Shown: positions 26,014 to 48,623 of the stretch, in pieces
How the letters are laid out: each line of letters starts with the position of its first letter
Numbering within the stretch: the first letter of the stretch is position 1
DNA from: Chloroflexota bacterium
GTDB taxonomy: Bacteria; Chloroflexota; Anaerolineae; Aggregatilineales; J027
DNA: 56,183 nt
Direction of reading: 5' to 3'
NCBI GenBank assembly: GCA_010092845.1
Contig: JAADYW010000098.1
Location: 1 to 56,183, forward strand
Translations under genes and position numbers: made by a program
Notes under the pieces: generated by a model
What the model was told of the DNA's origin: nothing
Database searches by the model: none
What the model saw: the letters and a program-made list of their open reading frames with translations, nothing else

Positions 26014-26826
26014 ATGTGCCTCGACCCAGGCATCATATCGATTAGCAAGCTGTTGTGTGTAAGGCCCGGGCTGGCCATTGCCAATCACTGTGGCATTGAT
26101 CCGGGTAATCGGTATGACCCCGCGGCTGCTACTGGTCAGGAACGTCTCATCGAGTTGTGGAAGTTGGGCCAGTCTCACTGCCGCCAATTTCACGGGCGTT
26201 ACCTCGGGGGCGATGGTCAGTGTAACCCGACGGGCAATACCATTCAATACCGTGTCATCCGGCGCCGTATACAGCACACCATCGACAACAGCGTAGAAAT
26301 TGCTGCCAAAGCCCTCTAGCAGGGCTTCTTGCTCATCAACAATAATGCATTCATAGGCGTCTGGCGCATGTTGCTGTTTGGCGGCGGCGCGTTGAGCCAT
26401 CCACTCGGTTAACTTCGCCTGGGGAGCCTCCCGCTGGATAGGCACCGTTGCCACCGCAACCCCCTTTTGGCGCAGCGCGGCCGGGATCGCTTCAAAAGGC
26501 TCTAGCGTGATGATCCGGTGGTCCGGGGCTTGACGCGGCACCGTAATCCGAAAACGCGCTTCTGGATAGCCCGCTTGCGCGATCAATTCGCGAAGCGCGC
26601 CACGTAACGCCGCGCGATCCAGTTGCAAAGGTATCTCTGCAATGCGCGCGGATTCCTCCATACGATCCAGGTGAGCATCCAACATAAGCTCCTGGTCGTG
26701 GTGAAAGGTGCGCGCCACCGAGTATACCCCTTCTGGCTCGTGCGTCGCGGCTTCGGCCAATGATTCCGCGGTATAGCCAACGGCTTCCAGTCCGTTAGGA
26801 GTGAGTAGGCCAATTGTAGTCGGCAT
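25999..26826 (-). CDS. Aminotransferase class IV family protein (D-amino-acid/branched-chain aminotransferase or ADC-lyase-like)
   Basis: Its length of 275 aa and the segments 'LDAHLDRMEESA', 'EGFGSNFYAVVDGVLYTAP...VLNGIARR' and 'ETFLTSSSRGVIPI' fit fold-type IV PLP enzymes. It starts 12 nt after the DUF2233 stop. Confidence 0.65.
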   Translation of the reverse strand: MPTTIGLLTPNGLEAVGYTAESLAEAATHEPEGVYSVARTFHHDQELMLDAHLDRMEESARIAEIPLQLDRAALRGALRELIAQAGYPEARFRITVPRQAPDHRIITLEPFEAIPAALRQKGVAVATVPIQREAPQAKLTEWMAQRAAAKQQHAPDAYECIIVDEQEALLEGFGSNFYAVVDGVLYTAPDDTVLNGIARRVTLTIAPEVTPVKLAAVRLAQLPQLDETFLTSSSRGVIPITRINATVIGNGQPGPYTQQLANRYDAWVEAHLAPI

Positions 26827-26838
26827 AGTGTAGGCAAC

Positions 26839-27678
26839 TCAACGTGGATAAACGGCTAAGATGATGGGCAAATCGCTGAACGCCGGGATCTCAACTGGCT
26901 CATTAGGATGGGTGACATACATGGCGGTCGATTTGCCACCGTCCAGCGCTACCGCCACATCGAGTTCCAGGCCGCTGCCGAGGAGCCAGTCTTGCAGTTC
27001 ATTGAAGGTGATGTGACCGAGGAGGCCGGTTGTCATCAACAGAATGTTACCCTGGCCGTCTTCGGCGACCAGCGTGCGGCGGGCAGGATCATCGAAGCCG
27101 GGGCCAGTTGCGGCTGCAATTCCCGGGCGCTCAACGAGTACGGGAAAGGCTTGAACAGCCTGGGCATAGAATTCGCCACGATAGGGCTCCTGAACCAACG
27201 ATCGCACCCGCACCGTGCCGCTCTGTTCAACCTGGAACATACCCCCATAGCCCGCTAGTGAAATGCCATAGGTCACGCCGTCTGCCACTACCAGCCCGAT
27301 GGCGTTATTGTCCTCGGTGAAGAAACTGGCGTTAACAAATACCAGGACTTCCTGGCCAAGAGCCGCTTGCCAGGCGAAGAAGCTATTACCATCTCCCGGG
27401 AGGTAGTGGACCCGAAACTGTACCTGTTCCGGGTCGATACGGACAACGTGCATCTCAAAATCCGGGCTGCTGGCGGTAGTGACCGCAAAAGCACGATAGT
27501 CTACGCCGGCTGCAACGGATACCCAGTCTGAGGTGGCTGGCATTTCGGCGGTTGGCGTATCCCCATCTGCCGCGGGACTTGGATCGTCCGCTAAACTGGC
27601 AGTACAGGCAATCGCTACACCTAGCAGCATGAGAAGCGCCAATACTACCGGGCCTTTGAGAGAGAATCGATCTGGCAT
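26839..27678 (-). CDS. Phosphodiester glycosidase family protein (DUF2233 / NAGPA-like), membrane-anchored or secreted
   Basis: The N-terminal anchor 'GPVVLALLMLLGVAIAC' and the C-terminal 'VAVALDGGKSTAMYV' resemble the DUF2233 signature. I prefer the ATG at 27678, 1 nt after the upstream stop; the track start at 27939 would overlap the VWA gene by 260 nt. Confidence 0.65.
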   Translation of the reverse strand: MPDRFSLKGPVVLALLMLLGVAIACTASLADDPSPAADGDTPTAEMPATSDWVSVAAGVDYRAFAVTTASSPDFEMHVVRIDPEQVQFRVHYLPGDGNSFFAWQAALGQEVLVFVNASFFTEDNNAIGLVVADGVTYGISLAGYGGMFQVEQSGTVRVRSLVQEPYRGEFYAQAVQAFPVLVERPGIAAATGPGFDDPARRTLVAEDGQGNILLMTTGLLGHITFNELQDWLLGSGLELDVAVALDGGKSTAMYVTHPNEPVEIPAFSDLPIILAVYPR

Positions 27679-27679
27679 A

Positions 27680-30616
27680 TTACGAGCGTTCCCGTTTCTT
27701 CTTGAGCAGTTGGGATGCGGTCGACTTATCCCCAGCGGCAGGGCGTGCTTTCGGCGGCTCACCCGGTTTGGGCACTTGCTTCTTATCCTGCTGGGATTCC
27801 GGCTTCGATGGCTGCTGGGGATGCTTTGCCTCGCTTCTGGTATGGCGGATGGCGGTTGCCGCCGGCGCAGGCTGAGCCGCATCGCCCTCAGCGCTGCCCG
27901 CTTCTCCCTGGGCACGCTGTTTGGCCCGCATGAGATCACTCATCCGCTCAGAGTACTCGGTCTCATCGTAGCGGCTTTCGCGCCGGCCGACCAGATTGAG
28001 GACTGTCTCGCGCATGCGTTCGAGATCGCTTTGATTGATGACCAGACGCCGGACCGCGATATCGACGACCAGCAACACTGCGGCCAGTCCTAACAGGTAT
28101 GGCCACAATGGGAGGGCAGCTTCCTCTTGTTCGAGGTTATGGACAAAGGCCGAGGCGGGATTCCCGGCCAGCGAGGAGCCATTTGTGGTGCGCGAGATCT
28201 GCTGCAAGAAGACAGCGTCTGGCTCATTGACCCGGTATTCAGGTGAATAGCTGAGGACCCAGCCCGTATTCTGCGCTACGGTCGCCTCGATGGGAGCATC
28301 TTCGCTGGTCCCGCCATAAACACGGATGAAATATGCGCCCTCATCTGTTGGCTTGAAGGAGGCCTCATAACGGCCTGGGGCCACCTGGTGGAACTGCGGT
28401 GAAACTGTCTCGCGTCCAGGCAAGACGATGGCCGCTTCGAGGTCCAGCGCATTGAGATAGTTGCCGCTGTTGTCGCGGGCATCAACCACCACCACGGAGT
28501 CTTCACCACGTTCCTCGACCCAGACGTCGAGATTGCTATCCGTTCCCTCCGTGATGGTCCAGCGCACAACCTGGTTCCAGAAACGGGTGTAGTCGCCCCA
28601 GCCATTCACCCAGTTAGTGCCCCAACGCAGAGTCGCGTCCGATGTGAAGGCCACCGAACGCCCCAGGCCATATTGCCAGGAGACCAGGATCGGATCTTCT
28701 TCGGGGCCTGTCATGATGACCGTGGCGGTCTCTTTGGGTGTTGTCGCTACATAGCCTAGCAGGGGCGGCATCGTGTTCAAATCCACACCGTCAATAATCG
28801 GGCTGGGAGCGGTAATGGCGGGGGTAAAGGGTTCTTCAAAGATATACGAACGGGTCGCCAGAACAGTCTCCGCTGAGAAGATGGCGGGAATGCTCTCAAC
28901 ATCTGAGGTTGCATGGAAATTCCCGCCACCGTGAGCAGCAACATCGCGCAGCCAGGGCGCATAGTCTTCGCCAATCGCTACCACTGAGGTGGTGATATCG
29001 AAGCTATCATGCATCCGGCCGACCATGGATGTGATACCCGACGGGTTCGCGCCACCATCAGTAAGCAAGATAATGTGCTTCAGAGTGGAGGGATCGCTGG
29101 GGAGGACGCTGTCGACAGCATTTAAGCCACCAAAGATATCCGTACCACCGCCGGCGCGCAAACTGCCGACCCGATCCTCGATCTGCTGGCGGTTAGCGGC
29201 ATCCCCGATTTCCTGAATGTCGACGACCCAGAAGGCCTGGTGGTCGAACGAGACGACGCCTGCCCGGTCGTAGTTGTTGAGGAAGTTCATCGACCGCAAG
29301 ACGGCTTCCTTGGCCAACTCCAGATTGGTGAATCCACTCGGCCCGGTGATCTCCATGGAGCCAGAGCGGTCAATCACGTAGACCATTGTGAGTTGGGGGA
29401 TGCGTTCCTGATCTTTGATACGCATTTCGACGGGTAATACGTCCTCGAGTTCCGTCTCAAAATAGCCACCGACACCGTAGCTGTCCGGTCCGCCGATAGC
29501 GATCAGGCCGCCTCCCAGGTCTCGCACGTAGATTTCGAGCAGTTCCATCCGACGCGGCGTCAGATCTGCCGCCGGGACATTGACCAGAATAACGCTGCGG
29601 TAGGTGCTGAGGGGCGCCAGCCCAAGCGGCATCTGAGCAGGAGTAACCACATCGAGAAGGAGACCGGCGTCCGTCAACGCGGCCTCGAGATACTGAGTCT
29701 CCGCTGGGTCATTGGCAACCACGAGAACGCGGGGCCGGCCAGATACCTGGGTAAACGCCGAGAGCTGGTTATTCTGTTGAAAACCCTCCGCGGTTATTGG
29801 TTCCAATAGAACGCGAAAATCCACGAACTGGGCCGAAGGGAATTCGAGTGGCCCAATGGCATACTGGGTCATCCCGGGGCGTAAGGTGACCTGTGCGGTG
29901 TGGATTGCTGAACCAGCCGCCAGGATCGTCAGGTTCGCATCTGTTGGGGAATCTCCCTTATTCTCAAGTGAAACAACCAGATCGAATGGCTCGTTCTCGC
30001 CGACCACGGAGGGAACACGGACGCTGTTGACCAGCACTTCGCGGTCACGCACGATACCGAAAGGGACATAGTCGATCTGGACATCAGTTGCTGCAGCGAG
30101 CTGCGAAGCGCGCACCGCATCCCCGACCGTTTCCAGACCGTCGCTGAGGATCACCATCCGTTTAGCGGCATCTGGCGGAAATAGCGCCAGGCCCAGCCGG
30201 ATCGCCTCCGCGATATCAGTGTTTAAACGCACCGGTTCGGATCCAATCTCGTTGAGGTTCACCAGAGCATCCATCGGGTGCTCGACCAGAGCATTGGAGC
30301 CGAAGAGCACAACCGCCGCTTGATCATCCTCGCCCATTTCATCAATGGCGCGGCGTACATATTCGAGCGCTTGGCGTTGGGAGGTCTCGTCCATGCTATC
30401 AGACACGTCCACCAGGAAGACCACCGCCAGCTTATCGGCTTCGCGGCGGATTTGCAGCCCGGCCAGCGCCAGGATCAGCGTCAGAATAAGGATGATCCGT
30501 ACTACCAGGGCAACCGTGTCGCGACGACGGCGGTAGGCCAGGCGTGGCCAGCCCAGGCGCATGAAAATCGGGATTAACAGGAGCAGCAGAAAAGCATCAG
30601 GGTTTGTAAAGCTCAT
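27680..30616 (-). CDS. Large membrane protein with two VWA domains and GATase1-like spacer modules (BatB-like)
   Basis: It has an N-terminal double-TM and two MIDAS motifs: 'FLVDVSDSMD' (aa 68-76) and 'YVIDRSGSME' (aa 413-422). Flavodoxin/GATase-like segments are present ('RVLVVANDP...LIAIGG'), with a C-terminal TM 'LWPYLLGLAAVLLVVDIAV' and a basic disordered tail. Confidence 0.75.
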   Translation of the reverse strand: MSFTNPDAFLLLLLIPIFMRLGWPRLAYRRRRDTVALVVRIILILTLILALAGLQIRREADKLAVVFLVDVSDSMDETSQRQALEYVRRAIDEMGEDDQAAVVLFGSNALVEHPMDALVNLNEIGSEPVRLNTDIAEAIRLGLALFPPDAAKRMVILSDGLETVGDAVRASQLAAATDVQIDYVPFGIVRDREVLVNSVRVPSVVGENEPFDLVVSLENKGDSPTDANLTILAAGSAIHTAQVTLRPGMTQYAIGPLEFPSAQFVDFRVLLEPITAEGFQQNNQLSAFTQVSGRPRVLVVANDPAETQYLEAALTDAGLLLDVVTPAQMPLGLAPLSTYRSVILVNVPAADLTPRRMELLEIYVRDLGGGLIAIGGPDSYGVGGYFETELEDVLPVEMRIKDQERIPQLTMVYVIDRSGSMEITGPSGFTNLELAKEAVLRSMNFLNNYDRAGVVSFDHQAFWVVDIQEIGDAANRQQIEDRVGSLRAGGGTDIFGGLNAVDSVLPSDPSTLKHIILLTDGGANPSGITSMVGRMHDSFDITTSVVAIGEDYAPWLRDVAAHGGGNFHATSDVESIPAIFSAETVLATRSYIFEEPFTPAITAPSPIIDGVDLNTMPPLLGYVATTPKETATVIMTGPEEDPILVSWQYGLGRSVAFTSDATLRWGTNWVNGWGDYTRFWNQVVRWTITEGTDSNLDVWVEERGEDSVVVVDARDNSGNYLNALDLEAAIVLPGRETVSPQFHQVAPGRYEASFKPTDEGAYFIRVYGGTSEDAPIEATVAQNTGWVLSYSPEYRVNEPDAVFLQQISRTTNGSSLAGNPASAFVHNLEQEEAALPLWPYLLGLAAVLLVVDIAVRRLVINQSDLERMRETVLNLVGRRESRYDETEYSERMSDLMRAKQRAQGEAGSAEGDAAQPAPAATAIRHTRSEAKHPQQPSKPESQQDKKQVPKPGEPPKARPAAGDKSTASQLLKKKRERS

Positions 30617-30619
30617 AGC

Positions 30620-32599
30620 CTATATCCTTTGCCACCAGCGCCGATTTTTGGGTCGGCGTTGGCGGCCTTGAAGGATTTGCGGAGAAACGGGTTTAGGTTT
30701 GCGATTGAGACTGCGATGGTAGTACCACCACTCGATTCCCAGGATGAGCAGGCCGGCCGAAACCAGGAGTGTCCACAGTTCACGGCGGCCAGTTTCTTCG
30801 CGCGTTGTGCTGGCGATGGTCGTCTCGCCTTCCTGAGTCTGGACGAGAATCTCCTCAACGGGTGTGATATTGCTTTCACCAGCATCAAACAGGTTAACCG
30901 CAAAGGCGTCACTTTGGACGACCTCCCCCTCGAGGAGCACCTCAACGTGGTAGAGACCAGGATCGGAGGTGTCAGCATAGATGACCTCTGGCGCGTCTTC
31001 AAGCTCGAGCGTCGTGTCATCGCCGCCGGGTGCCTCGATGCGAACGACATCAGCGTCAGTTGTCGGCCGGACGACAATTGCCTCACCAGGCGAGAGATTG
31101 TCATCATTGATCGCGCGCTGTGGCTGGTACCATTCGTTCAGCCGGGCCATCAGAATGGGCCAGGCAGGCTGGAGTGGCAGGTTAGAATCCTGGAGGGCGA
31201 AGGTAATCACCGCGATTTGGCGCCCATCAACCTCGCCGGCCAGGACGAGTGGATCGCCCTCGGTGGTCTCGAACAAGACTGTAGCCCAGTCGATGCGCTC
31301 AAGTGTCCGGATTTTGAGGATGTCGACATTGGCGAAGTCAACAAATCGCGTGCGTTCATCCTCGCGCAGAACGCCACCAGTGAGGGAGTCGATGGTGGTT
31401 GCATTGGTCTCGCCGGTGACCTCAAAGTAATTCGTGCTCTCTGGCGGATTGATAATGAGTAGGTCGGTATCGGGCAGTGACTGGTTGGGTAGCCAGCCAT
31501 CGAAGGCCACCAGATCGTAGTCGCCACTGGGTAGCCCGCGCTCCGGGGAAGCTATTGTTACGTTTATCCCTGGCAGGGTACTGAGGCCCAACTCCAGGAA
31601 AGTGTTACCCTCCGTCATGACCAGGACCTCACCGGTTGAGGCCTCCGCATTGACCGCATAGGCAGTGTTATCGTCGTCGAGGTGGTCGGGTACATCGACC
31701 CCACTACGCGGCGTGATAATGGCCTTGAGTTCCAGGAAATCTGGTGGCAGATCTTCGACGCTGACATCAACTACGGATCGGGCTGGTACTTCGCGGAACC
31801 GCGAGTCATAGAGATCGTCGTCAAGGCGGATCTGGAAGGTGACTTCGGTGTCGCGGTCGCCGAAGTTTGTTACCTGGGCAAAAAGCTGAGGTGCTTCACC
31901 GGGCAGAGCCCGTGTCGAGAGCGCGGTGATGGCGACGTTGTCGTCGTCCTCGCCGATCTTGACGTATCTCAATTCACCGGGTAACTCCGGCAAATCCGCT
32001 GGCAAGCCACCATCGCTCAGGATAACCACGCGCAGCGATTCCACACCGCGTGATCCCGCTGAAGCGAGGGTCAAAGCCGCAGACCAGTCCGCACTGCCTT
32101 TGCCGGGCTCAGCATCGTTGATTGCGTCGCGTAATACGCTGCGATCGCGCGAGGCGGCCGCCAGTACTTCGGGCACCGCTGCTACCCGGATGACTGTCAT
32201 CGTATCGTCGGCGCCGAGTGTATCGATGGTGTCCAATGCCAGATCACGTGCGGCTTCGAAGCGCGACGCGCCACCGACATCGGTGGCGTTCATGCTGGCC
32301 GAGGCATCGAGCAACAATACCACCCGTCCGGTGACAATGGTTTCAACTTCACGATATGGTCGAGCCAGGGCCAGGACCAGGGCCGCCAATATGAGTAACT
32401 GCAACAGCAGCAACAGATTAGGGCGTAGTTTTTGCCAGGGCGCATTGGCTTCGCGATCCCGCACGAGTTGTTGCCATAGGAACGTACTGGAAATCGGCTG
32501 GTCAGTCCGACGCAGGCGCAGCATATATAACAGGAAGATCGGCACAGCTAATGCGCTGAAACCTAACAACAATGGTGAAAGAAACCCAAATCCACTCAC
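30620..32599 (-). CDS. BatA-like protein: aerotolerance-regulator N-terminal double-TM domain plus VWA domain
   Basis: The 'FLSPLLLGFSALAVPIFLLYMLRLRR' N-terminus is typical of BatA_N. The MIDAS motif is 'VLLLDASASMN', and a C-terminal TM reads 'LWTLLVSAGLLILGIEWWYY'. Confidence 0.75.
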   Translation of the reverse strand: MSGFGFLSPLLLGFSALAVPIFLLYMLRLRRTDQPISSTFLWQQLVRDREANAPWQKLRPNLLLLLQLLILAALVLALARPYREVETIVTGRVVLLLDASASMNATDVGGASRFEAARDLALDTIDTLGADDTMTVIRVAAVPEVLAAASRDRSVLRDAINDAEPGKGSADWSAALTLASAGSRGVESLRVVILSDGGLPADLPELPGELRYVKIGEDDDNVAITALSTRALPGEAPQLFAQVTNFGDRDTEVTFQIRLDDDLYDSRFREVPARSVVDVSVEDLPPDFLELKAIITPRSGVDVPDHLDDDNTAYAVNAEASTGEVLVMTEGNTFLELGLSTLPGINVTIASPERGLPSGDYDLVAFDGWLPNQSLPDTDLLIINPPESTNYFEVTGETNATTIDSLTGGVLREDERTRFVDFANVDILKIRTLERIDWATVLFETTEGDPLVLAGEVDGRQIAVITFALQDSNLPLQPAWPILMARLNEWYQPQRAINDDNLSPGEAIVVRPTTDADVVRIEAPGGDDTTLELEDAPEVIYADTSDPGLYHVEVLLEGEVVQSDAFAVNLFDAGESNITPVEEILVQTQEGETTIASTTREETGRRELWTLLVSAGLLILGIEWWYYHRSLNRKPKPVSPQILQGRQRRPKNRRWWQRI

Positions 32600-32616
32600 A
32601 ATACGCCTCGCTCACA

Positions 32617-35271
32617 CTATTCTTCAACGATGATCTCGACTGGCAACCGTGCGTGATCTGCTCCATCCTCAGCCAGGATGCGCGCCAGGGTGTCGCTCTG
32701 GGGGTCGTATAAGCCCGCGATCAAATAGGCTGCCCCCTCATAATCTTCTACTCGAAAGGTCAAGCGATGGTTGTCTACAATCACCTCATCTGGTGCCCAG
32801 CCGGTCGTTGGGCGCTGGCCTGCGGCGGGGATCTGGTCACTCTGCGCCAATAGCCGGCCTGAAGTGTCCAGTAGTTGGACAAAGGCGACGTTAGATCGTT
32901 CTGTTGGGCCAGCTGCTCGCCAGATGAGTTCGACGGCGGGCGGGTCTTCAGATGATACGTTACTCGGGTTGAGGACCGTGGCGCCGACTAGCGTGCCAAT
33001 CTCGGGAAAGACGACGTCTAACGGTGTCTCATAGGCTGGGAGATCAAACTGGCGCGTGAGGCTGACTACATCGTAGGTGGCGATTTCGTGCCCGTTGACC
33101 TCGAGTCGGACTTTCTCGCCTGGTTCTGGCGGTAACTGAAAGCGATGCCAGCTTCGTTGGGGTTGGGACGGCGCTGCAAGTTTGACGGACTGCTCCTGAA
33201 CCCAATCGTCCCCAACCAGCGCTATGGTAGCTGTGGTCTCCGGAGATACGATCAACACGGTGACGTGCAGAGGTTGTGCGCTGTCCAGTGTTCCGGGCGC
33301 CCCAGCGTTATCCGAGACCAACTGGCTGCTAGCCGGCGCTTCGTCAAGTGGCGGTCCCGAAGCAACGATTGCGGTATCGGGGCGGTAGTTGACCCCTATC
33401 GGTGCGCCATCTGGTGACAAAACATCCAATCCGTGGGGAAACGTTTCACTGTAAACGCTTAGCGTCAGCGGATAGCCATCCTCAGGGGCGGCTGGCGGAA
33501 GTTGTAGGCGATGATAGGATGACACGGTGTCACCAGCAGCCATTTGGTCGGCCGGGACTTGCTCACGGTCTCGCAAAACGGCATCAACCTGCGAGAGCTC
33601 CCAGCCCAGGGAGTTGAGAAGCCGTACAACAGTATTCAACTGCTCGTCAGGGGTTTGGAGCAGTTCCCAACGGGACCGCACACAGATTTCCCCGGCGGAT
33701 GCGCTCATCCACCCCAGATCCTCTAGCCGGATGCGCTCATAGCGCGGCGCGGCTGGGATGGGCTGTAATACCGGCTTCGTGTCAAGGGTATAGGTCTGCG
33801 TGGCCAGGCCAAAGAAGGTTTGCTCGGCGCCGATTGACTGGCTGCCGCCGGCCAGAATGCATGGGTACATCCCGCGGGTATCCGCAGGTAACTGGAACCA
33901 GGTCAAGAACGCGACCTGAGAGGGACTCTCGGCCTCGATCAGGTCAGTGAGTGTTTCCAGAAGACGCCCTTCATCACTGTGGAGTGGGATGTTCACAAAA
34001 CGTGCCTGGATCCCCATCCTCGCGGCGTAATAGTCTTGCAGGGCCGGCTCACGGTCATAGGGCACCAATATTACGGCCTCGGGTGGCAGTGCCACGTAGT
34101 AATCCGCCAGCGCAGCAAAATCGTCGTGCTGGTAGCGCCGGGTACTCTGGATGGCGCTCAGGCTATCGACTGTCAGCCAGCCACCGGCAACCACCACGAG
34201 GGACAGGGTTGCTACGATGATGCGGCGACCAGCGATGGATTGCAACACTACGGCACCCCCCACGATCAAGAGCAGTGTGGCGGGTACGACTGCGATATAG
34301 TAACGCGGATGAAAGTCGATATTGGCTTGACGGAGCAGTACGGTGCTGAAGAGCGGGACCATCCCTGCCTGGGACAGGAGCAGCCAGGCACGCCGCGAAC
34401 GGTCAAGCACGAGCAGCGTCATCGCCGCCAGAATGGTCACAATGCCAGCCAGATCGAGAAGGAGGTGATCTGCGGTCTCTTGAAGCTGAGGCAAGGCTGG
34501 TAAGAAGTAGCTGTACCAGATATCCTGGACCAATGCGCTGCCCCATTGAGGTACTGTATTGAGGGGTGTGCCGGAGGGCGATTGTGTGCTCAGCCACGGA
34601 AGATAAGCCGCCACCATCAAGAGATGCAGCCAGAACCAATTCCAGAGGCGTCGCCAGTCCTGGCGGCTCAACCAGGCCAGGCCCATCGCTACGCTGAGCC
34701 AGACGACTACCGGCACGACCAGATTATGTGTGTACAATCCCAGAATCTCGACGACAAGAATCGCAGCCCAGAGCCGGCGCGGAATGATCTGTCCGTGGCG
34801 ATAGCGCAAGATCTGCTCCGCCAGGCCAAGCAGCATCAGGGCTACCAATGGGACAGCGACATAGGCGCGCACTTCCTGGCTATATTCCCAGAGCAGCGGC
34901 GAGATCGCAACCAGGGAGCCGGCAACCCCTCCAGCCGCAGGGCCGTACCAGCGCCGGGCGATTAGTAATGTCACCGCCACCGTCAGCAACCCGATCAGCA
35001 CCGATGCAAATCGGTAGGAAAAGGGAGTTTCCCCAGTCCCCAATCGCCACAGTATATGCCCCACAGCATAATAGACAACAGGTGTATTGTCGTCTGGCGT
35101 GTTAATCGGATCGTTTATGGCCCGGATTGACCAGCCTTCGTCGTGCCAGATCGACTCGGTGTTGAGTTGCCAGACACGCAGAGCAAACCCACCTAGCAGC
35201 ACGGCAATCGCCAGCACCAGGAAAAGGCGCTGGCCAGCATCATGCTGCCGAGTGGTGTGCGTATCGATCAC
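32617..35271 (-). CDS. GT-C fold glycosyltransferase, family 39 / ArnT-PMT-like, with ~470-aa extracytoplasmic C-terminal domain
   Basis: The first-loop 'SIWHDEGWS' (DE motif) is present, with about 11-13 TM helices in the first ~400 aa followed by a soluble C-terminal region. The GTG start at 35271 overlaps the DUF58 stop (GTGA). Confidence 0.7.
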   Translation of the reverse strand: MIDTHTTRQHDAGQRLFLVLAIAVLLGGFALRVWQLNTESIWHDEGWSIRAINDPINTPDDNTPVVYYAVGHILWRLGTGETPFSYRFASVLIGLLTVAVTLLIARRWYGPAAGGVAGSLVAISPLLWEYSQEVRAYVAVPLVALMLLGLAEQILRYRHGQIIPRRLWAAILVVEILGLYTHNLVVPVVVWLSVAMGLAWLSRQDWRRLWNWFWLHLLMVAAYLPWLSTQSPSGTPLNTVPQWGSALVQDIWYSYFLPALPQLQETADHLLLDLAGIVTILAAMTLLVLDRSRRAWLLLSQAGMVPLFSTVLLRQANIDFHPRYYIAVVPATLLLIVGGAVVLQSIAGRRIIVATLSLVVVAGGWLTVDSLSAIQSTRRYQHDDFAALADYYVALPPEAVILVPYDREPALQDYYAARMGIQARFVNIPLHSDEGRLLETLTDLIEAESPSQVAFLTWFQLPADTRGMYPCILAGGSQSIGAEQTFFGLATQTYTLDTKPVLQPIPAAPRYERIRLEDLGWMSASAGEICVRSRWELLQTPDEQLNTVVRLLNSLGWELSQVDAVLRDREQVPADQMAAGDTVSSYHRLQLPPAAPEDGYPLTLSVYSETFPHGLDVLSPDGAPIGVNYRPDTAIVASGPPLDEAPASSQLVSDNAGAPGTLDSAQPLHVTVLIVSPETTATIALVGDDWVQEQSVKLAAPSQPQRSWHRFQLPPEPGEKVRLEVNGHEIATYDVVSLTRQFDLPAYETPLDVVFPEIGTLVGATVLNPSNVSSEDPPAVELIWRAAGPTERSNVAFVQLLDTSGRLLAQSDQIPAAGQRPTTGWAPDEVIVDNHRLTFRVEDYEGAAYLIAGLYDPQSDTLARILAEDGADHARLPVEIIVEE

Positions 35272-36167
35272 CGTACCACCCCGAGACGACGTAGCTCGAA
35301 GAGGATCAGTTCCTCCCAGGGCATGCTGGTTTCGACTGTCACGTAGTGAATGCCCCGCTTGAGGCAGAAATCCCCGATTTCCTCGCGCCAGGCGGTGAGT
35401 CGTTGCTGGTAGAGTTCCAACATGGGCACGTCAATTGTTACCTCCTGCGGGACGCCCGTTTCAACATCGATGAGGCGCAGATCGCCGGTAATCTCCGGAT
35501 TGACCTCATCGGGGGCAAGTGGCTGGATCAACGCGACTTCAAAACCCCGTGATTGGAGTGCGGTCAGGCCATCGCGATAATCGGGAGACATCATATCGCT
35601 AAAGAGGATGCATAATCCTGGGCGCCTGGCACGCAATGCGTAGTCACGCAGCGAAACATCGAGTATGGTTTCCCCCCGCGTATAGAATTTCTCGAGATGT
35701 TGAAGCAAGCGCATGGTGTAGCCACGACCCCGATGAGGCCCCCAGCGTTGGTTCCCGCTCTGGCGGAGTGCAGTGACTTGTACCAGGTCGCCTGTCGACA
35801 GCGACAGATAGGCCAGGCCAGCCAAGACCCGCAGCGACCAGATGAACTTGTGCTGGGCACGCTCGCCCTGGCGTGGCCAATCCATGCTCGACGACGCATC
35901 GATCAGAAAATGGACGGCCAGATCCTCCTCTTCTTCGAGGAGTTTGATAAAAGGTCGCTCAAGACGCGCATAGATATTCCAATCAACGCGCCGCAAGTCG
36001 TCGCCTTTGACGTAGTCCCGATAGTCAGCAAACTCGATGCTGGTTCCGCGTTTGGTCGAGCGACGTTCACCTTTCATGGCGCCAGCACGCACCTGATTGG
36101 CCACCAGGGTCAGGTTTTCGAATTTGCGCAGTGTTCCAGGATCAAAGATTCGAAAAGGGGTGCTCAT
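35268..36167 (-). CDS. DUF58 domain protein (MoxR-associated VWA-like)
   Basis: 'FADYRDYVKGDDLRRVDWNIYARLERPFIKLLEEE' is the DUF58 signature. A MIDAS-like 'FLIDASSSMD' is also present. Confidence 0.85.
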   Translation of the reverse strand: MSTPFRIFDPGTLRKFENLTLVANQVRAGAMKGERRSTKRGTSIEFADYRDYVKGDDLRRVDWNIYARLERPFIKLLEEEEDLAVHFLIDASSSMDWPRQGERAQHKFIWSLRVLAGLAYLSLSTGDLVQVTALRQSGNQRWGPHRGRGYTMRLLQHLEKFYTRGETILDVSLRDYALRARRPGLCILFSDMMSPDYRDGLTALQSRGFEVALIQPLAPDEVNPEITGDLRLIDVETGVPQEVTIDVPMLELYQQRLTAWREEIGDFCLKRGIHYVTVETSMPWEELILFELRRLGVVR

Positions 36168-36184
36168 GATAACTGTCCTTAGGG

Positions 36185-37048
36185 CTAGAGGTCTTGGCGG
36201 CGAAAAATGACGACCGTGGCGGCGAGCAAGCCCAGGAGCCAGAGCGCCAGCGCAAATATCGAAGGGACAAGCGCGACTTCGAGCTCTTCTGAGATGAAAA
36301 CGGCGCCCTCGCCTGTGTTGATCCAGGCGGCGATATTATCAGCATGAAATGCTGGTACCAATACGAGCAGGTTATTGACCCAATCCCATTGAAAAATATC
36401 GGCTATGAGCGATAGGATGGGCGGAATACCCAGAAATTCTACCAGGGCGAAAAAGGTGCTCACCAGCACGCCAAAAAGGATCGAACGGGTCCAGATCGAA
36501 ATCAAAATGGCGATATTGGCCACCACCAGGAAGCTGGCCAGTCCCAGCGCAACATTGGCCAGCAGGTTGCCGGTGAAATCCGCCAACACAGCGGCGCTCA
36601 AGGCCGGTGGGTAGCCAGCACCTAGCAATAGGTTCATTGCCCCGAGGCTGATTACCAGCACCAGCATCATCACAGCGAAAGCAATCAGGATGACAATCGC
36701 CATAACCACATATTTTGCCAACAGCATTTTAATCCGGGTGTTTCCGGGGAGCACTGTCTTCCAGGTGCCATGCTGGTATTCACCCGCGAATACAGTGGCC
36801 ACAAAGCCCATCAACAACAGACGCCCCAACACGCTATTGAGCGCTTGCCACGGTCCTAACGCCGCATCCGTCCATCTGACGGGCGAATCAACATAGGCGG
36901 CCTGAGAGCCACTGCCCCGCGCGACAAAAGCCAGATAGATCAGTGTCACCATGCCGCAGGCCAGAAATGGCCATATCCAGATCAGGCATCCCATCAGAAT
37001 GCGATTGCCGGTGATCTTATGCCATTCTGCACGGAATAGCGCCATCAT
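36185..37048 (-). CDS. ABC-2 type transporter permease
   Basis: Six predicted TM helices and an ABC-2-like 'FRAEWHKITGNRIL' N-terminus. I prefer the ATG at 37048, which forms an ATGA overlap with the ATPase stop; the track start is GTG 37057. Confidence 0.65.
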   Translation of the reverse strand: MMALFRAEWHKITGNRILMGCLIWIWPFLACGMVTLIYLAFVARGSGSQAAYVDSPVRWTDAALGPWQALNSVLGRLLLMGFVATVFAGEYQHGTWKTVLPGNTRIKMLLAKYVVMAIVILIAFAVMMLVLVISLGAMNLLLGAGYPPALSAAVLADFTGNLLANVALGLASFLVVANIAILISIWTRSILFGVLVSTFFALVEFLGIPPILSLIADIFQWDWVNNLLVLVPAFHADNIAAWINTGEGAVFISEELEVALVPSIFALALWLLGLLAATVVIFRRQDL

Positions 37049-38001
37049 GCCTGCCACCCCTCCAGATTGCGCAATTGGGGGGATCCCGTCAGGGTGAAGA
37101 AGAAATCCTCCAGTGTTTGGCGCCGTTGGACGACTTGAAACACTTCTACATTGTGTTCGATCAGATGGCGTAGTATGGCCGGCGCTTCATCACGCGGGGC
37201 ATCGACGATGACCTTCCCATCCGCAGTCTGCTGGGCCGCCCAGCGCTCCTGGAGCAGTTCAAGCGTGCGATTAACCGGCGTGCTTTCAATCTCAAGCTGG
37301 GGCTTTTGGTCCAGTAGCTCTGCGATGGTGCCTTCGCGCAGAATACGGCCCTGATGTATGATCGCGACCGCGTCACAGATTTGCTGAACTTCACCCAATA
37401 GATGGCTGCTGAGAAAGACGGTTTTGCCATAGCGGTGGGCGAGATCGCGAATAAAAGTCCGCATTTCGCGTATGCCGGCCGGGTCCATGCCATTGGTTGG
37501 CTCATCCAGAATAATGAGATCCGGATCCTGGAGGAGGGCTGCTGCCAGGCCTAGCCGTTGGCGCATCCCGGTCGAGTATTTGCCCACCCGCACCATGGCC
37601 ACCTCGGCCAGGCCAACGAGATCAATGAGCCGTCTAGCGCGCTCCTCGTCTAGCCCGCCCTGGCTGCAACCAGCTACCCGCAGGTTGTCCCATCCAGTCA
37701 GGTAAGGGTAGAAGGCGGCGCCTTCTACCAGGGTGCCCACCTGGCGCAAAATCGCGGGATTCCCGCGCGGATCCTGGCCGAATATGGTCGCCTGCCCAGC
37801 AGTGGGGTGGATCAGATTGAGTAGCATGCGGATAGTCGTGGTTTTCCCTGCGCCATTTGGTCCCAGGAAGCCGAAAACCTGCTGCCCAGTCACTTGTAGA
37901 TTGATACCATCCACTGCCCTCTTCTGCTGGGTGCCACGGCCAAATACCTTGGTCAGGTTTTCGACCTGAATGATCGGACCATCCACCACGACAGGATACA
38001 C
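37045..38001 (-). CDS. ABC transporter ATP-binding protein (ABC-2 / CcmA-type)
   Basis: Walker A 'GPNGAGKTTT', signature 'YSTGMRQRLGLA', Walker B 'LIILDEPTNGMD' and H-loop 'SSHLL'. Confidence 0.85.
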   Translation of the reverse strand: MYPVVVDGPIIQVENLTKVFGRGTQQKRAVDGINLQVTGQQVFGFLGPNGAGKTTTIRMLLNLIHPTAGQATIFGQDPRGNPAILRQVGTLVEGAAFYPYLTGWDNLRVAGCSQGGLDEERARRLIDLVGLAEVAMVRVGKYSTGMRQRLGLAAALLQDPDLIILDEPTNGMDPAGIREMRTFIRDLAHRYGKTVFLSSHLLGEVQQICDAVAIIHQGRILREGTIAELLDQKPQLEIESTPVNRTLELLQERWAAQQTADGKVIVDAPRDEAPAILRHLIEHNVEVFQVVQRRQTLEDFFFTLTGSPQLRNLEGWQA

Positions 38002-38006
38002 TTCCC

Positions 38007-38600
38007 CTATGTCTTCTGTAGGGTTGCTTCAGACCGCAAAACAGGTAACATCTGAGCAGCGAGGCCCCATTGGAACAAACGGATCATTACCGCCAGGCGA
38101 AGCGCATTCTCAGCGTCAGGATCACGCACCGGGGTGAACAATTCTTCTAGCGTCTGCGCGCGCGCCGTGGCGGGCATGGCGGGCTGCCAGGTCTCGCTCA
38201 GGCGCCAGAAGGCAGCATATAGCTCCCAGGCCGCCGCAGCGTGTAAGGCGGCGAAATCCGTCTCCCACTGACGCACGAATTGGTAGGTGCTGAGGGTGTC
38301 GAGGGCCAGGCGAAAACCATCGGCGGTCAGATTCCACAAATTGGTCTTGCGGTTGGAGAAGATCTCCTCAGTGACATTGATGCCTGTCGAGGTGACAGCC
38401 AGGCCCGTGGCGATGACGGGAAACTGGCGTGTCCCGATCTTGCTCTGTACAGCGCTCAGATAGCGAAAGAAGTGCCCGGCCAGGTCGCGTGCAATGGGTG
38501 CTTCTGGATGGCGGCTGGCCAGTAAACCCGCATGCAGATGCCAGAGCCCTTCGGGCGATGGTTTTTCGAGCACCTGCTCCACTAGCAGTGTGAGGCCCAT
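38007..38600 (-). CDS. Hypothetical protein (197 aa), no recognisable family
   Basis: This ORF is wedged 2 nt after the MoxR stop and 5 nt before the ABC ATPase start. It is helical and Trp/Ala-rich, with no clear TM helices or motifs. The coding call rests on its tight packing in the operon. Confidence 0.5.
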   Translation of the reverse strand: MGLTLLVEQVLEKPSPEGLWHLHAGLLASRHPEAPIARDLAGHFFRYLSAVQSKIGTRQFPVIATGLAVTSTGINVTEEIFSNRKTNLWNLTADGFRLALDTLSTYQFVRQWETDFAALHAAAAWELYAAFWRLSETWQPAMPATARAQTLEELFTPVRDPDAENALRLAVMIRLFQWGLAAQMLPVLRSEATLQKT

Positions 38601-38602
38601 GG

Positions 38603-39604
38603 TTAGCCTTCCTGTCCTACCTTTTCGAGCATATCCTCAATAATCTGGTCGGCGGTAATGCCCTCTGCCTGGGCTTCGAAATTGAGCAAGAGACGGTGCC
38701 GGAAAACGGCCGCCGCGATCTGGCGGATATCGTCAAAGGCGACATTGTAGCGGCCTTCGAGAAGGGCATTGACTTTGGATCCCAGGATCAGCGCCTGGCC
38801 GCCGCGTGGGCTGGAGCCATAGCGTACATACTGTTTGACCATATCCGGTGCGTCGGGATATTCCGGGTGCGTCGAGACCACCAGCCGGGCCACATATTCA
38901 CTGACGTGCGAGGCAATCGGTACCTGTAGCGCCAGCTCGCCCATGGCGATAATCTGCTCCGCATCGACGACTGGTTCGGGCTCTGCTGCATATGAGCCTG
39001 TTGTCCGGTTGAAGATCTCGACCAACTCGTTGGCGTTGGGAAAGGTGACATCCACCTTGAACATGAAGCGGTCGAGCTGGGCCTCGGGCAGGGGATAGGT
39101 TCCCTCCATTTCAAGGGGGTTTTGCGTTGCCAGGACGAAGAACGGCGCCTCTAATTCATAGGTTTGATTGGCGACTGTGACACGCTTTTCCTGCATTGCT
39201 TCCAACAGGGCAGATTGGGTCTTGGGGGTCGCGCGGTTGATCTCATCGGCGAGCACCAGGTTGGCGAAAACGGGTCCGGCCTGGAACCGGAACTCGCGGC
39301 GACCGTCCTCGCGCTCTTCCAGGATGTCAGTTCCAACGATGTCGGCGGGCATCAAGTCCGGTGTGAACTGAATCCGGGCAAATTTGAGGTTCATCGCCTG
39401 GGCCAGCGTACGGATGAGCATGGTCTTGCCAAGCCCGGGCACACCTTCTAGCAAGGCATGACGGCCAGCGATAACGCAGATAAGAGCCTGGCGAATCAGA
39501 TCCGTCTGGCCAACAATCACCTTGCGGACTTGATCAACAATGGCCTGGGCACGTTCGGAGAACTCTTCGATGCTCATTTCGAGAGTCGGCGGTGCGTCTG
39601 TCAT
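38603..39604 (-). CDS. MoxR family AAA+ ATPase
   Basis: Carries Walker A 'GVPGLGKT', Walker B and sensor '[23 protein letters not shown]', 'FVLATQNP' and 'GSSPRG'. A GAAGGAG Shine-Dalgarno lies upstream. Confidence 0.9.
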
Positions 39605-39686
39605 GATCTACTCCTTCGCAATAACGGTCAACTGCACTAGGTCTACTTGATCGCCAGGGTTAGGGTTGGGTTCTGGCTATGCACCA

Positions 39687-41633: not shown

Positions 41634-41714
41634 ATTGTATGTTCCCTCACCTAACGACGATGGTCTGCCTATAATACACAATCCACCGTATGAATGTTTG
41701 GAATCAATCCGTTC

Positions 41715-42638: not shown

Positions 42639-42653
42639 CAGTACTTCCTTTGC

Positions 42654-43706: not shown

Positions 43707-43724
43707 TTACTCCTTGAAAAACAC

Positions 43725-46244: not shown

Positions 46245-46470
46245 ACCAGAATCTCCCAATAATACTAAGCAAGCGTCCAGTCTGGTTACTGGGTTACGAT
46301 CACAAACTACCATATCAACCGATTTGTGCCCTTACACTCATTATAGACGCTGACCTGCCCAGCATCCTCACTGGATTCCAAAATTCTACTGTACCGTGTT
46401 GGGGTAATATGCTTGCTCCAGTGAGACAATCCGATACCAGTGGCCCGCCAAAACGCCTGATGAGCGTAGG

Positions 46471-48522: not shown

Positions 48523-48623
48523 GAAACTTCCTCTCAGGCTTGGTATGGGGAACTCGATAGTACAAATAATATCGCTAAGGCACACGCTGAAACACAAAAA
48601 GCGTACCCCGAGTTCAGTAATCT

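Follow-up and report, generated by a model that had tools for sequence, protein, structure and literature searches.

The MoxR/DUF58/VWA operon of this Chloroflexota bacterium lies within a genuine, closely spaced gene cluster that recurs across many Chloroflexota. With a probability of about 0.5, the nine genes at positions 26839-39604 and their neighbours constitute a single layered envelope system, conserved in Anaerolineae-type Chloroflexota and transcribed as one unit, that works by the inferred mechanism set out below. The window is the whole of contig JAADYW010000098.1 (assembly GCA_010092845.1), 56,183 nt in length.

The sequence-only reading had described nine consecutive minus-strand CDSs, and all nine open reading frames are present exactly where it placed them. 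The start/stop overlaps at 37045-37048 (ATGA) and 35268-35271 (GTGA) are also as described, and the remaining gaps in the nine-gene set measure 2 nt (between the MoxR and 197-aa genes), 5, 17, 17, 3 and 1 nt, so that spacing within the set runs from -4 nt (overlap) to +17 nt. The ends assigned to the unit were too narrow on both sides. The packed conserved unit spans about 25999-46313: a class IV aminotransferase gene lies 12 nt beyond the 3' end, and four further conserved genes lie upstream of MoxR, out to 46313. Searches of the window for RNA elements and tRNAs found none. The genes, listed from the upstream end, are as follows.

46471..48597, minus strand: FHA-domain membrane protein with Ig-like domains, 708 aa (FHA 57.7 bits), 157 nt upstream of the unit
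43725..46313, minus strand: 862-aa membrane protein, DUF7408-like, first gene of the conserved cluster
42654..43706, minus strand: ABC ATPase 1, DrrA/GldA-like (ABC_tran 102.7 bits, with DrrA1-3_C)
41715..42638, minus strand: ABC-2 permease 1, weakly GldF-like (GldF 35 bits; ABC2_membrane_2 and ABC2_membrane_3 below cut-off)
39687..41681, minus strand: 664-aa acidic protein with three TM segments (from sequence and TM scan)
38603..39604, minus strand: MoxR AAA+ ATPase, cytoplasmic (AAA_3 218.9 bits, AAA_lid_2 60.8 bits)
38007..38600, minus strand: 197-aa orphan, cytoplasmic, found in GT-C-containing clusters only
37045..38001, minus strand: ABC ATPase 2, a paralogue of ATPase 1 (ABC_tran 95.7 bits)
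36185..37048, minus strand: ABC-2 permease 2, its ATG at 37048 overlapping the ATPase 2 stop
35268..36167, minus strand: DUF58 protein (PF01882), cytoplasmic, VWA-like (95.3 bits against a cut-off of 23.4)
32617..35271, minus strand: GT-C-fold glycosyltransferase, ArnT/PMT-like, 884 aa, its GTG start overlapping the DUF58 stop
30620..32599, minus strand: BatA_N (double-TM) and VWA protein, 659 aa (BatA 63.2 bits, VWA_2 50.5 bits)
27680..30616, minus strand: double-VWA membrane protein, 978 aa (VWA_2 88.8 bits over two stretches, VWA 80.1, GATase1_like 69.2, weak Filamin)
26839..27678, minus strand: membrane-anchored protein with a NAGPA/DUF2233 phosphodiester glycosidase domain, 279 aa (NAGPA, PF09992, 55.8 bits against a cut-off of 25)
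25999..26826, minus strand: class IV (D-amino-acid/branched-chain type) aminotransferase (Aminotran_4 127.4 bits)

Most of the proposed family assignments withstood profile searches. MoxR, the ABC ATPase, DUF58, the BatA_N-VWA protein, the double-VWA protein and NAGPA all pass Pfam, whereas the 884-aa GT39/ArnT-like protein has no full-length match, PMT_2 and permease 2 fall under their cut-offs, and the GT-C assignment is based on fold, invariant motifs and homologues. MoxR passes the cut-offs of both AAA_3 (27) and AAA_lid_2 (22.7). The BatA-VWA protein exceeds those of BatA (25.9) and VWA_2 (27), and also matches TIGR02226 at 25.7 bits, above its cut-off of 23.05. The label "Bat-like" is appropriate for MoxR, DUF58, BatA and the second VWA protein, but not for the operon as a whole, which has no BatC-, BatD- or BatE-type protein; in Pfam searches none of the 15 cluster genes matched these families (TPR, BatD, SH3/TPR).

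All four DxSxS MIDAS motifs originally noticed are present. DASSS lies at residue 90 of DUF58, where D-x-S-x-S is conserved in the tallied orthologues (51 of 55 aligned), and DASAS lies at residue 98 of the BatA-VWA protein and is conserved in 47 of 48 orthologues. The double-VWA protein carries DVSDS at residue 70 and DRSGS at residue 416, both conserved, the latter in 41 of 43 orthologues. This protein is composed of two N-terminal TM segments, a VWA domain, a spacer domain, a second VWA domain, a GATase1_like domain, a filamin-like Ig domain and a C-terminal TM segment, and its residues 1-348 are homologous to the BatA-VWA protein (hhalign). The loop between TM1 and TM2 of the BatA-VWA protein is arginine-rich and nearly invariant.

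The VWA domains of the cluster are predicted to face outward, based on the positive-inside rule and on Borrelia BB0173, whose BatA-type VWA domain was found experimentally to be periplasmic (PMC5700661). The TM scan found no TM segment in MoxR, DUF58 or the 197-aa protein. MoxR-driven maturation of the VWA proteins, as originally proposed, is therefore untenable in the form of a direct action on VWA domains, because MoxR and DUF58 lack TM segments and the VWA domains are predicted to lie outside.

The module upstream of MoxR begins with the 862-aa protein, which has an N-terminal anchor and two central TM segments and keeps its upstream position in 32 of 36 loci. It reaches 24.3 bits against DUF7408, under the cut-off, and its homologues bear PF24157, PF14258 (DUF4350) and PF06283 (ThuA), the last two being GATase1/flavodoxin-like and GldG-like domains. 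An hhalign comparison matches its residues 69-260 with residues 206-400 of the double-VWA protein at a probability of 77%, and GATase1-like domains recur in three cluster proteins. ABC ATPase 1 matches TIGR01188 at 256.7 bits and GldA at 241.9 bits, both below the equivalog cut-offs, and orthologues of permease 1 in two other loci (L001 and L085) match PF12679. The 664-aa protein starts with three TM segments, continues in a long, acidic low-complexity region rich in E, Q and G, and has a conserved motif at its C-terminal end; none of 24 orthologues gave a meaningful Pfam match. It accompanies the DUF7408-ABC-ABC2 module even where MoxR is missing (L085). The idea that it is of the DUF4175/TIGR02302 type found no Pfam or NCBIfam support among these orthologues and was dropped. 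Two further candidate MIDAS motifs, DASGS (664-aa protein) and DESAS (862-aa protein), are not conserved and were set aside as chance matches. The gene for the FHA protein adjoins the cluster likewise in one close relative (L084), with a 21-nt gap. Its product is possibly a regulator and may belong to the unit.

The 884-aa protein is a GT-C enzyme, as judged from its modelled fold, its invariant motifs and its PMT_2-matching homologues. The full-length protein has no Pfam match, and its N-terminal 392 aa score 18.5 bits against PMT_2 (cut-off 26.1); 17 of 36 homologues match PMT_2 at E <= 0.01, the best at 1.5e-6. Searches of the PDB with the single sequence and with a profile returned nothing, and fold comparison alone succeeded. 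The AlphaFold (AF2) model (pLDDT 90.8) comprises about 11 TM segments and, outside the cytoplasm, a ~500-aa C-terminal part that combines an alpha/beta domain with Ig-like sandwiches. The top Foldseek matches are ArnT structures 5f15 and 5ezm (5f15 with E 3.7e-9 and a TM-score to target of 0.56), followed by STT3, AglB, PglB, ALG12, DPY19, AftA and Pmt4. Residues W42-H43-D44-E45, in the first external loop after TM1, are invariant in 36 sequences, as are YTHNL and DFHPRY, and WHDE[GAS] is found in 47 of 49 in-cluster copies. With the modelled GT-C fold, the invariant HDE motif and the other invariant polar residues, the enzyme looks active. The conserved cluster encodes neither a polyprenyl-phosphate sugar synthase (GT2) nor a small flippase.

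In the second ABC/ABC-2 pair, ATPase 2 aligns to ATPase 1 with an hhalign probability of 100% and scores 183 bits against the GldA model. Permease 2 reaches 26.9-27.0 bits against ABC2_membrane_2 (cut-off 27.2), and among its 22 aligned orthologues 12 match ABC2_membrane_4 and nine ABC2_membrane_2 at E <= 0.01. For the 197-aa protein just 20 homologues were found, and no match in Pfam or NCBIfam; its AF2 model is an entirely alpha-helical bundle of moderate confidence (pLDDT 76.8), with no PDB fold match at E < 0.1. The ~230-aa lipoprotein ORF located before MoxR in relatives is not a homologue of it. The likeliest start of the NAGPA gene is ATG 27678, and the resulting 279 aa agree with homologues of 264-280 aa; the protein has an N-terminal TM segment, and a sequence search of the PDB found no match for it. 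The sugar-phosphate loop DGGGS has been reported as strictly invariant in NAGPA (PMC13474241). The loop reads DGGKS here and DGG[RK]S in 33 of 36 orthologues, so that the Asp, both leading Gly residues and the Ser are retained. The aminotransferase gene is a conserved neighbour in 30 of 36 loci and may belong to the functional unit; its product reached no NCBIfam equivalog.

The arrangement is not unique to this genome. Of 80 loci examined in other species of Chloroflexota, ~45 keep the gene order, with 34-53% identity in the GT-C protein, in Aggregatilineales, Thermoflexus, Ardenticatenia-labelled MAGs and Aggregatilinea lenta. Over 49 genomes the median gaps are 3 nt from GT-C to BatA, -8 nt from ATPase to permease of the second pair, and -4 nt from the double-VWA gene to NAGPA. 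An independent metagenome scan seeded with the BatA-VWA protein retrieved many sister clusters without GT-C, including ones in which DUF58 directly adjoins BatA-VWA. GT-C-less clusters retain the order DUF7408-ABC-ABC2-664aa-MoxR-DUF58-BatA-VWA2 (L101, L104, L121, L130, L131, L149, L157). Only GT-C loci carry the second ABC-2 pair and the 197-aa protein (37/42, versus 0/19 GT-C-less loci; Fisher p = 1.4e-11, with loci counted irrespective of phylogeny). ATPase 2 taken by itself is present in 32 of 36 GT-C clusters and in none of the 19 without GT-C. Five loci have GT-C without the added pair and the 197-aa protein (L056, L063, L078, L083, L109).

These comparisons resolve the cluster into two layers. 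The ancestral layer comprises the GldG-like DUF7408/DUF4350 protein, an ABC ATPase and ABC-2 permease, the acidic 3-TM protein, MoxR, DUF58 and two BatA-type proteins with VWA and GATase1-like domains predicted to face outward. In the added layer, which belongs to the lineage of the window, GT-C was inserted between DUF58 and BatA-VWA, and ABC-2 pair 2 and the 197-aa protein came later. The sequence-only reading held that the operon had recruited a glycosyltransferase, an exporter and a phosphodiester glycosidase. Recruitment is borne out by the GT-C-less sisters and the locus counts for GT-C and one ABC-2 pair; the other pair, with its DUF4350/GldG-like partner, is ancestral as judged from gene content. 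NAGPA was not recruited together with GT-C, because it also follows GT-C-less clusters (L114-L117).

It is plausible that the cluster is coupled to glycosylation, or to the export and trimming of a polymer. In the mechanism favoured here, MoxR and DUF58 would act from the cytoplasm on the arginine-rich BatA_N loop and on cytoplasmic tails, and their action would govern how the external VWA scaffold assembles or which conformation it takes. With a polyprenyl-phosphate sugar as donor, the GT-C enzyme would glycosylate a target outside the cytoplasm that its Ig-like C-terminal domain binds; this target may be the VWA ectodomains, or a wall polymer bound by them. The GT-C-dependent ABC-2 pair 2 may supply or export the lipid-linked substrate, and the NAGPA-type enzyme may trim a sugar-1-phosphate linkage outside the cell. 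A point against this explanation is that everything past gene content and order is inferred. Other points against it are the lack of a GT2 synthase and a small flippase in the cluster, the NAGPA loop that departs from DGGGS, the unrelated genes at the DUF58/BatA junction of other lineages, and the size of the GT-C family with its paralogues elsewhere. The specific proposal that GT-C is a dedicated modifier of the MoxR/BatA/VWA machine, glycosylating the MIDAS-VWA scaffold or its ligand with a lipid-linked sugar from ABC-2 pair 2, is rather unlikely. No GT-C-specific domain or insertion was found in BatA-VWA, double-VWA or DUF58, where a lead to an acceptor site was sought, apart from a few group-specific residues such as T133 of BatA-VWA; no acceptor site is therefore evident in the VWA proteins.

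The lack of an acceptor-specific feature in the VWA proteins would suit a wall-glycopolymer module, in which GT-C, ABC-2 pair 2 and NAGPA carry out lipid-linked glycan export, external extension or ligation, and phosphodiester trimming, while the MoxR/VWA proteins merely scaffold or position it and are themselves unglycosylated. The restriction of pair 2 to GT-C clusters, the retained catalytic Asp of NAGPA, and the large Ig/CBM-like external domain of GT-C, as in polysaccharide-acting GT-C enzymes (the fold matches include AftA and AftB), are consistent with this pathway. However, NAGPA occurs without GT-C, the cluster encodes no initiating or cytoplasmic polymer-building glycosyltransferases, and the permeases are of the ABC2_membrane_2/4 (GldF/NosY-like) type and not of recognised Wzm or TagG models. 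The pathway is the best-surviving alternative, and a doubtful one.

Unlikely is a machine for adhesion or surface translocation, in which both ABC-2 systems would be GldAFG/NosDFY-like mechanotransducers and not exporters, MoxR would be a second motor, external VWA/MIDAS adhesins would be moved or tensioned in filamentous Chloroflexota, and GT-C would merely decorate the adhesins. For both ATPases GldA ranks second among the NCBIfam models (after DrrA), GldF is the sole model matched by permease 1, DUF4350 is GldG-like (PMC5898192), and the three GATase1-like domains and the adjoining FHA-domain membrane protein also fit such a machine. Yet the Gld scores are far below the equivalog cut-offs (GldA 241.9 and 183 bits against 402.6; GldF 35 against 288.5), and other gliding genes are absent.

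Slightly less probable still is that the genes are neighbours with no joint function, GT-C and ABC-2 having been inserted at a permissive operon junction and carried along by lineage-specific synteny. In other lineages unrelated inserts (PDDEXK_3, MFS, BNR propeller, FGE-sulfatase, S1) occupy the same DUF58/BatA junction, and position alone is therefore no proof of function. The GT-C family is also large, with 3005 representatives at E <= 1e-30 and paralogues outside the cluster. However, free-standing ~860-aa GT-C paralogues are nested inside the in-cluster copies in an NJ tree, and the in-cluster position is therefore ancestral for that family. The insertion has moreover persisted in no fewer than 49 species-level genomes, at identities as low as 34% and with start/stop overlaps on both sides, and ABC-2 pair 2 is strictly GT-C-dependent. 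A role in conflict or defence, as in MoxR-vWA ternary systems, was suggested by a 51.7-bit match of MoxR to bpMoxR. It is effectively refuted by the far higher AAA_3 score (218.9 bits), by the absence of beta-propeller and effector domains in Pfam searches, and by PADLOC, which matched no model save P-loop noise on MoxR; the stable, chromosomal core character of the cluster also speaks against it.

Operons of the MoxR/DUF58/BatA-VWA kind occur very widely, and envelope and stress phenotypes are associated with them. To our knowledge, no molecular function is known for them, BatI included. The layered envelope system favoured here forms a natural series: the core, the core with GT-C, and the core with GT-C, ABC-2 pair 2 and the 197-aa protein. 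As a comparative-genomic hypothesis, the series points to extracytoplasmic glycosylation as an optional part of the system. If GT-C were a dedicated modifier, GT-C-positive and GT-C-negative variants of an otherwise identical cluster would provide the first biochemical handle on what is assembled by Bat/MoxR-VWA envelope systems. Aggregatilinea lenta, which we take to be a cultured isolate, has the full 13-14-gene array. The type of MoxR/VWA system and the DUF4350-MoxR-vWA link were already known; the Chloroflexota system has gained a membrane GT-C of its own and a second ABC-2 transporter. A literature search found no paper joining MoxR, DUF58 and a GT-C or ABC-2 arrangement.

Individual components resemble several known families. 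Like GldA/GldF/GldG, the cluster combines a DrrA/GldA-like ATPase, an ABC-2 permease and a large external GATase1-like partner; its scores fall short of the Gld equivalogs, its hosts are not Bacteroidota, T9SS genes are absent, and the GldG model itself gave no match, the link to GldG being made solely through the DUF4350 domain of the homologues. The GT-C protein has the GT-C TM fold of ArnT, PMT and Emb-Aft enzymes, and like them bears an acidic DE motif in its first external loop as well as an extracytoplasmic C-terminal domain, but differs in its sub-threshold PMT_2 score, in a ~500-aa alpha/beta and multi-Ig C-terminal part without PDB counterpart, and in its location inside a MoxR/VWA operon. 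The NAGPA protein, like other NAGPA/DUF2233 glycosidases, has a Pfam domain well above cut-off and the sugar-phosphate-loop Asp, and is membrane-anchored and extracytoplasmic; its loop is DGG[K/R]S and not DGGGS.

At the level of the operon, the closest features are shared with BatI-type (Bacteroides aerotolerance) operons (Bacteroides fragilis, Borrelia bb0170-0176, Leptospira, Rhizobium RL3499-3502), namely a MoxR of the AAA_3 type, a cytoplasmic DUF58 protein, a BatA_N double-TM protein with an outward MIDAS VWA domain, and a second membrane VWA protein. Unlike BatI, the Chloroflexota unit has no BatC, BatD or BatE, carries GT-C in the DUF58/BatA junction, and adds two ABC/ABC-2 pairs, GldG-like and GATase1-like domains, the acidic 3-TM protein and NAGPA. 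The DUF4350 (arCOG01314, GldG-like)-MoxR (COG0714)-vWA neighbourhood was predicted to encode a secretion or membrane-remodelling complex (Makarova, Galperin, Koonin 2015, PMC5898192). PF14258 is present in homologues of the 862-aa protein, and MoxR and three VWA-type proteins are encoded in the same array. Both systems have a membrane-anchored extracellular flavodoxin/GATase1-like protein, MoxR, and vWA proteins with Ig-like domains in one predicted operon, whereas the published neighbourhood is archaeal and lacks the ABC ATPase, ABC-2 permease, BatA_N, GT-C and NAGPA. The ancestral layer of the Chloroflexota cluster is the bacterial counterpart of this neighbourhood. In Chloroflexota the ABC-2 transporter genes themselves adjoin the gene for the GldG-like protein, and the 2015 prediction thereby gains a specific ATP-driven membrane module.

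The minus-strand gene cluster at about 25999-46313 is conserved, clearly beyond what chance would give, and its variants in relatives form a natural, informative series that differs in gene content. The sequence-only reading had recognized nine of its genes, from moxR to the gene for a DUF2233 phosphodiester glycosidase (NAGPA), at 26839-39604. The coordinates of all nine minus-strand ORFs were confirmed, as were the start/stop overlaps (ATGA at 37045-37048 and GTGA at 35268-35271). The remaining intergenic gaps within the array are 2, 5, 17, 17, 3, and 1 nt. Because ORF calling took the longest frame, some overlaps are overestimated. The NAGPA gene most plausibly starts at the ATG at 27678; the resulting 279 aa fits the homologue lengths of 264-280 aa. 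Four further same-strand genes upstream of moxR complete the cluster, and a class IV aminotransferase is encoded 12 nt after NAGPA.

Genes upstream of moxR: the four that complete the cluster, followed by the FHA gene.
39687-41681, minus strand: 664-aa 3-TM protein containing a long acidic stretch rich in E/Q/G
41715-42638, minus strand: ABC-2 permease 1
42654-43706, minus strand: ABC ATPase 1, DrrA/GldA-like
43725-46313, minus strand: 862-aa DUF7408-domain membrane protein
46471-48597, minus strand: FHA-domain protein (one TM, Ig-like domains); next gene upstream of the cluster

In homologues of the 862-aa protein, DUF4350 or ThuA is found, both GATase1/flavodoxin-like domains. The FHA gene is separated from the cluster by 157 nt in the window and by 21 nt in the close relative L084 (8009-9979), where it occupies the same position. 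The FHA protein could place the system under Ser/Thr-kinase control. At the other end, the aminotransferase gene is convergent with a GT4 glycosyltransferase gene (24811-26013, plus strand) that overlaps its 3' end by 15 nt. The best model for the GT4 protein is TIGR03087 of the PEP-CTERM/XrtA system (208 bits, below cut-off), and the gene is not kept in the synteny of relatives. Across 25500-45000, sigma-70-like consensus sites number 19 on both strands versus 8.7 +/- 2.8 in shuffled sequence.

Pfam searches, which had been proposed as a check, back most of the family assignments. MoxR matches AAA_3 (218.9 bits) and AAA_lid_2, the ATPase of the second ABC/ABC-2 pair matches ABC_tran (95.7 bits), and the DUF58 protein and NAGPA match their families with 95.3 and 55.8 bits, respectively. 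The 659-aa BatA-VWA protein contains BatA_N (63.2 bits) and VWA_2 (50.5 bits), and the 978-aa double-VWA protein contains two VWA domains, GATase1_like (69.2 bits), and a filamin-type Ig region with a weak match. All four DxSxS motifs that had been claimed are present and are kept in orthologues (e.g., DASAS in 47/48 and DRSGS in 41/43). ABC-2 permease 2 of the window is marginal (cut-off 27.2 bits, score 26.9-27.0); among 22 aligned orthologues, 12 match ABC2_membrane_4 and nine match ABC2_membrane_2. No family was found in Pfam or NCBIfam for the 197-aa protein.

The 884-aa protein (GT-C) had been called GT39/ArnT-like, which holds at the fold level but is below threshold in Pfam. The full-length protein has no Pfam or NCBIfam match; the sole signal is PMT_2, at 18.5 bits against a cut-off of 26.1, from the N-terminal 392 aa scanned alone. 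PDB searches with the sequence and with a profile were empty. However, the best fold match of the AlphaFold2 model (mean pLDDT 90.8) is ArnT (5f15, E 3.7e-9, TM-score to target 0.56), followed by STT3, AglB, PglB, ALG12, DPY19, AftA, and Pmt4. The more than 200 full-length homologues are exclusively from Chloroflexota, and PMT_2 is matched by 17/36 homologues. In the alignment W-H-D-E is invariant directly after TM1, as are YTHNL and DFHPRY. The model has approximately 11 TM helices followed by a part of about 500 aa, in which several Ig-like sandwiches accompany an alpha/beta domain, that should lie outside the cytoplasm. This architecture belongs to a large family not limited to the MoxR/VWA operon, since searching 1.84 billion representatives with a profile returned 3005 proteins with E <= 1e-30.

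The GT-C-seeded synteny scan, which used one genome per species and assigned genes by tblastn and ORFs, yielded 80 loci. All are from Chloroflexota, labelled Anaerolineae, Aggregatilineales, Thermoflexus, or Ardenticatenia, plus Aggregatilinea lenta. Gene order is kept in approximately 45 of the 80 and is thus not unique to the window genome. The shared 5' half reads DUF7408 - ABC - ABC2 - 664aa - (lipoprotein ORF of about 230 aa) - MoxR - (197aa) - (ABC - ABC2), and the 3' half reads DUF58 - GT-C - BatA-VWA - double VWA - (NAGPA) - aminotransferase. Junctions are tight across loci; for most gene pairs, the median gap falls between -8 and +15 nt.

Gene presence in GT-C-seeded loci that span the MoxR to double-VWA genes (n=36).
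GT-C: 36/36 loci
Second ABC/ABC-2 pair: 32/36 loci
197-aa gene: 21/36 loci
NAGPA: 32/36 loci
Aminotransferase: 30/36 loci

The lipoprotein-like ORF (approximately 210-250 aa) lies between the acidic 3-TM gene and moxR in most relatives (L001 4899-5591, L005 5323-6048, and about 30 others) and is missing from the window and its closest relatives. The encoded protein combines a signal peptide containing a lipobox Cys with a linker rich in Pro and Thr. It shares no homology with the 197-aa protein.

About 21 of the GT-C-seeded loci are paralogues elsewhere in the genome, often as tandem genes for proteins of about 620 and 860 aa, and the sequences indicate that the family expanded in Anaerolineae. 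Tandem free-standing paralogues without MoxR context occur in L002, L013, L014, L015, L017, L022, L050, and L061, with up to four in L050. In a neighbor-joining tree (no support values), the free-standing paralogues of about 860 aa are nested within the in-cluster copies, which suggests that the in-cluster position is ancestral for this family.

Because the first locus set was retrieved via GT-C, a single metagenome scan, whose loci are without taxonomy, was seeded with a BatA-VWA alignment. GT-C is present in only 6-8 of the 36 metagenome loci that contain both DUF58 and BatA-VWA. DUF58 immediately adjoins BatA-VWA in 14/36; the remainder have unrelated genes at this junction (PDDEXK_3, MFS, BNR/sortilin propellers, FGE-sulfatase, S1, and HIT), and by gene content the junction is tolerant of insertions. 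The PDDEXK_3 nuclease-superfamily ORFs are small and occur in GT-C-less loci (L101 9496-9918, L117 9414-9953, and L122 9394-9945). The order DUF7408-ABC-ABC2-664aa-MoxR-DUF58-BatA-VWA-double VWA is retained in GT-C-less loci L101, L104, L121, L130, L131, L149, and L157. Additions in the MoxR-DUF58 interval (second ABC/ABC-2 pair, 197-aa gene) are present in 37/42 GT-C-containing loci versus 0/19 GT-C-less loci that show this interval (Fisher p = 1.4e-11, a statistic that ignores shared ancestry). GT-C occurs without either addition in L056, L063, L078, L083, and L109. A MoxR-free standalone DUF7408-ABC-ABC2-523aa module is present in L085, and DUF7408-ABC pairs also occur.

Judged by gene content, the cluster has a layered structure, with a core of eight genes encoding the GldG-like protein, ABC, ABC-2, the acidic TM protein, MoxR, DUF58, BatA-VWA, and double VWA. 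In the lineage of the window, this core gained GT-C, and then a second ABC-2 pair and a small cytoplasmic protein, both contingent on GT-C. The recruitment proposed from the sequence alone thus stands for GT-C, the second ABC-2 pair, and the 197-aa gene, and the original interpretation as a whole finds partial support. The recruitment does not extend to NAGPA, which with the aminotransferase also lies behind some GT-C-less clusters (L114-L117), or to ABC-2 transport as such, which belongs to the core.

A TM scan found no TM segments in MoxR, DUF58, the 197-aa protein, or either ATPase. In BatA-VWA and double VWA, the inter-TM loop near the N-terminus is Arg-rich and nearly invariant (LYMLRLRR...REANAPWQ); the VWA domains are predicted to face outward because of this loop (positive-inside rule). 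An outward VWA topology was shown experimentally for a Borrelia BatA-type protein (PMC5700661). The two VWA proteins are homologous over approximately 350 residues (hhalign probability 96%), and similarity (hhalign probability 77%) was also found between the part of double VWA that follows its first VWA domain and residues 69-260 of the DUF7408 protein. ATPases 1 and 2 are paralogues (hhalign). Residue 133 of BatA-VWA (30620-32599, minus strand; T133, DDTMT) is Thr in >90% of GT-C-containing clusters, with Val predominating in those that lack GT-C; it is a lead to a candidate GT-C-related site.

From these data we infer a mechanism. MoxR and DUF58 probably act from the cytoplasm, governing how an external MIDAS/VWA and GATase1-like scaffold is assembled or which conformation it takes. 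Control would be exerted via the BatA_N loop and the cytoplasmic tails, because these are the sole parts of the VWA proteins reachable from the cytoplasm. MoxR and DUF58 would work jointly with the GldAFG-like ABC-2 module. In the window lineage, GT-C would transfer a sugar from a lipid-linked donor onto an external acceptor, and the lipid-linked substrate would most obviously be supplied or exported by the second ABC-2 pair, which depends on GT-C. The predicted role of NAGPA is extracellular cleavage of a sugar-1-phosphate linkage. No domain or insertion that could mark an acceptor site sets the VWA proteins of GT-C-containing clusters apart, and the cluster contains no donor-synthesis gene. 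NAGPA is anchored at its N-terminus and has the loop DGGKS at residue 246 of 279 aa, and DGG[RK]S is found in 33/36 orthologues. DGGGS was reported as strictly invariant with a catalytic Asp in a 2026 structural paper (PMC13474241). The added positive charge in the cluster NAGPA loop is at a phosphate-contacting position.

Two fusions of separate note are encoded elsewhere in the window. A 716-aa protein of unusual architecture (19031-21181, minus strand) is a fusion of a PALP (PLP-dependent) enzyme domain and two receiver domains of the response-regulator type. An 882-aa protein (8916-11564, plus strand) combines DHH/DHHA1, CBS, and a poly(A) polymerase/CCA-adding head domain.

A reading of the cluster as a defence system is not supported by PADLOC, and its scores with the GldA/GldF models are far under the equivalog cut-offs. 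The earlier description as Bat-like is partly correct: MoxR, DUF58, BatA, and a second VWA protein are common to the cluster and BatI-type operons, whereas BatC, BatD, and BatE of the latter are all absent. As had been supposed, a literature search found no published precedent for GT-C or this ABC-2 arrangement inside a MoxR/DUF58/VWA operon. The Chloroflexota cluster is a variant, not seen before in the literature found, of a known but poorly understood kind of system. A GldG-like DUF4350 protein is associated with MoxR and vWA in archaea and some bacteria, in a predicted secretion or membrane-remodelling complex (PMC5898192). The Chloroflexota core fits this DUF4350-MoxR-vWA description, and what it has in addition is the ABC-2 transporter itself.
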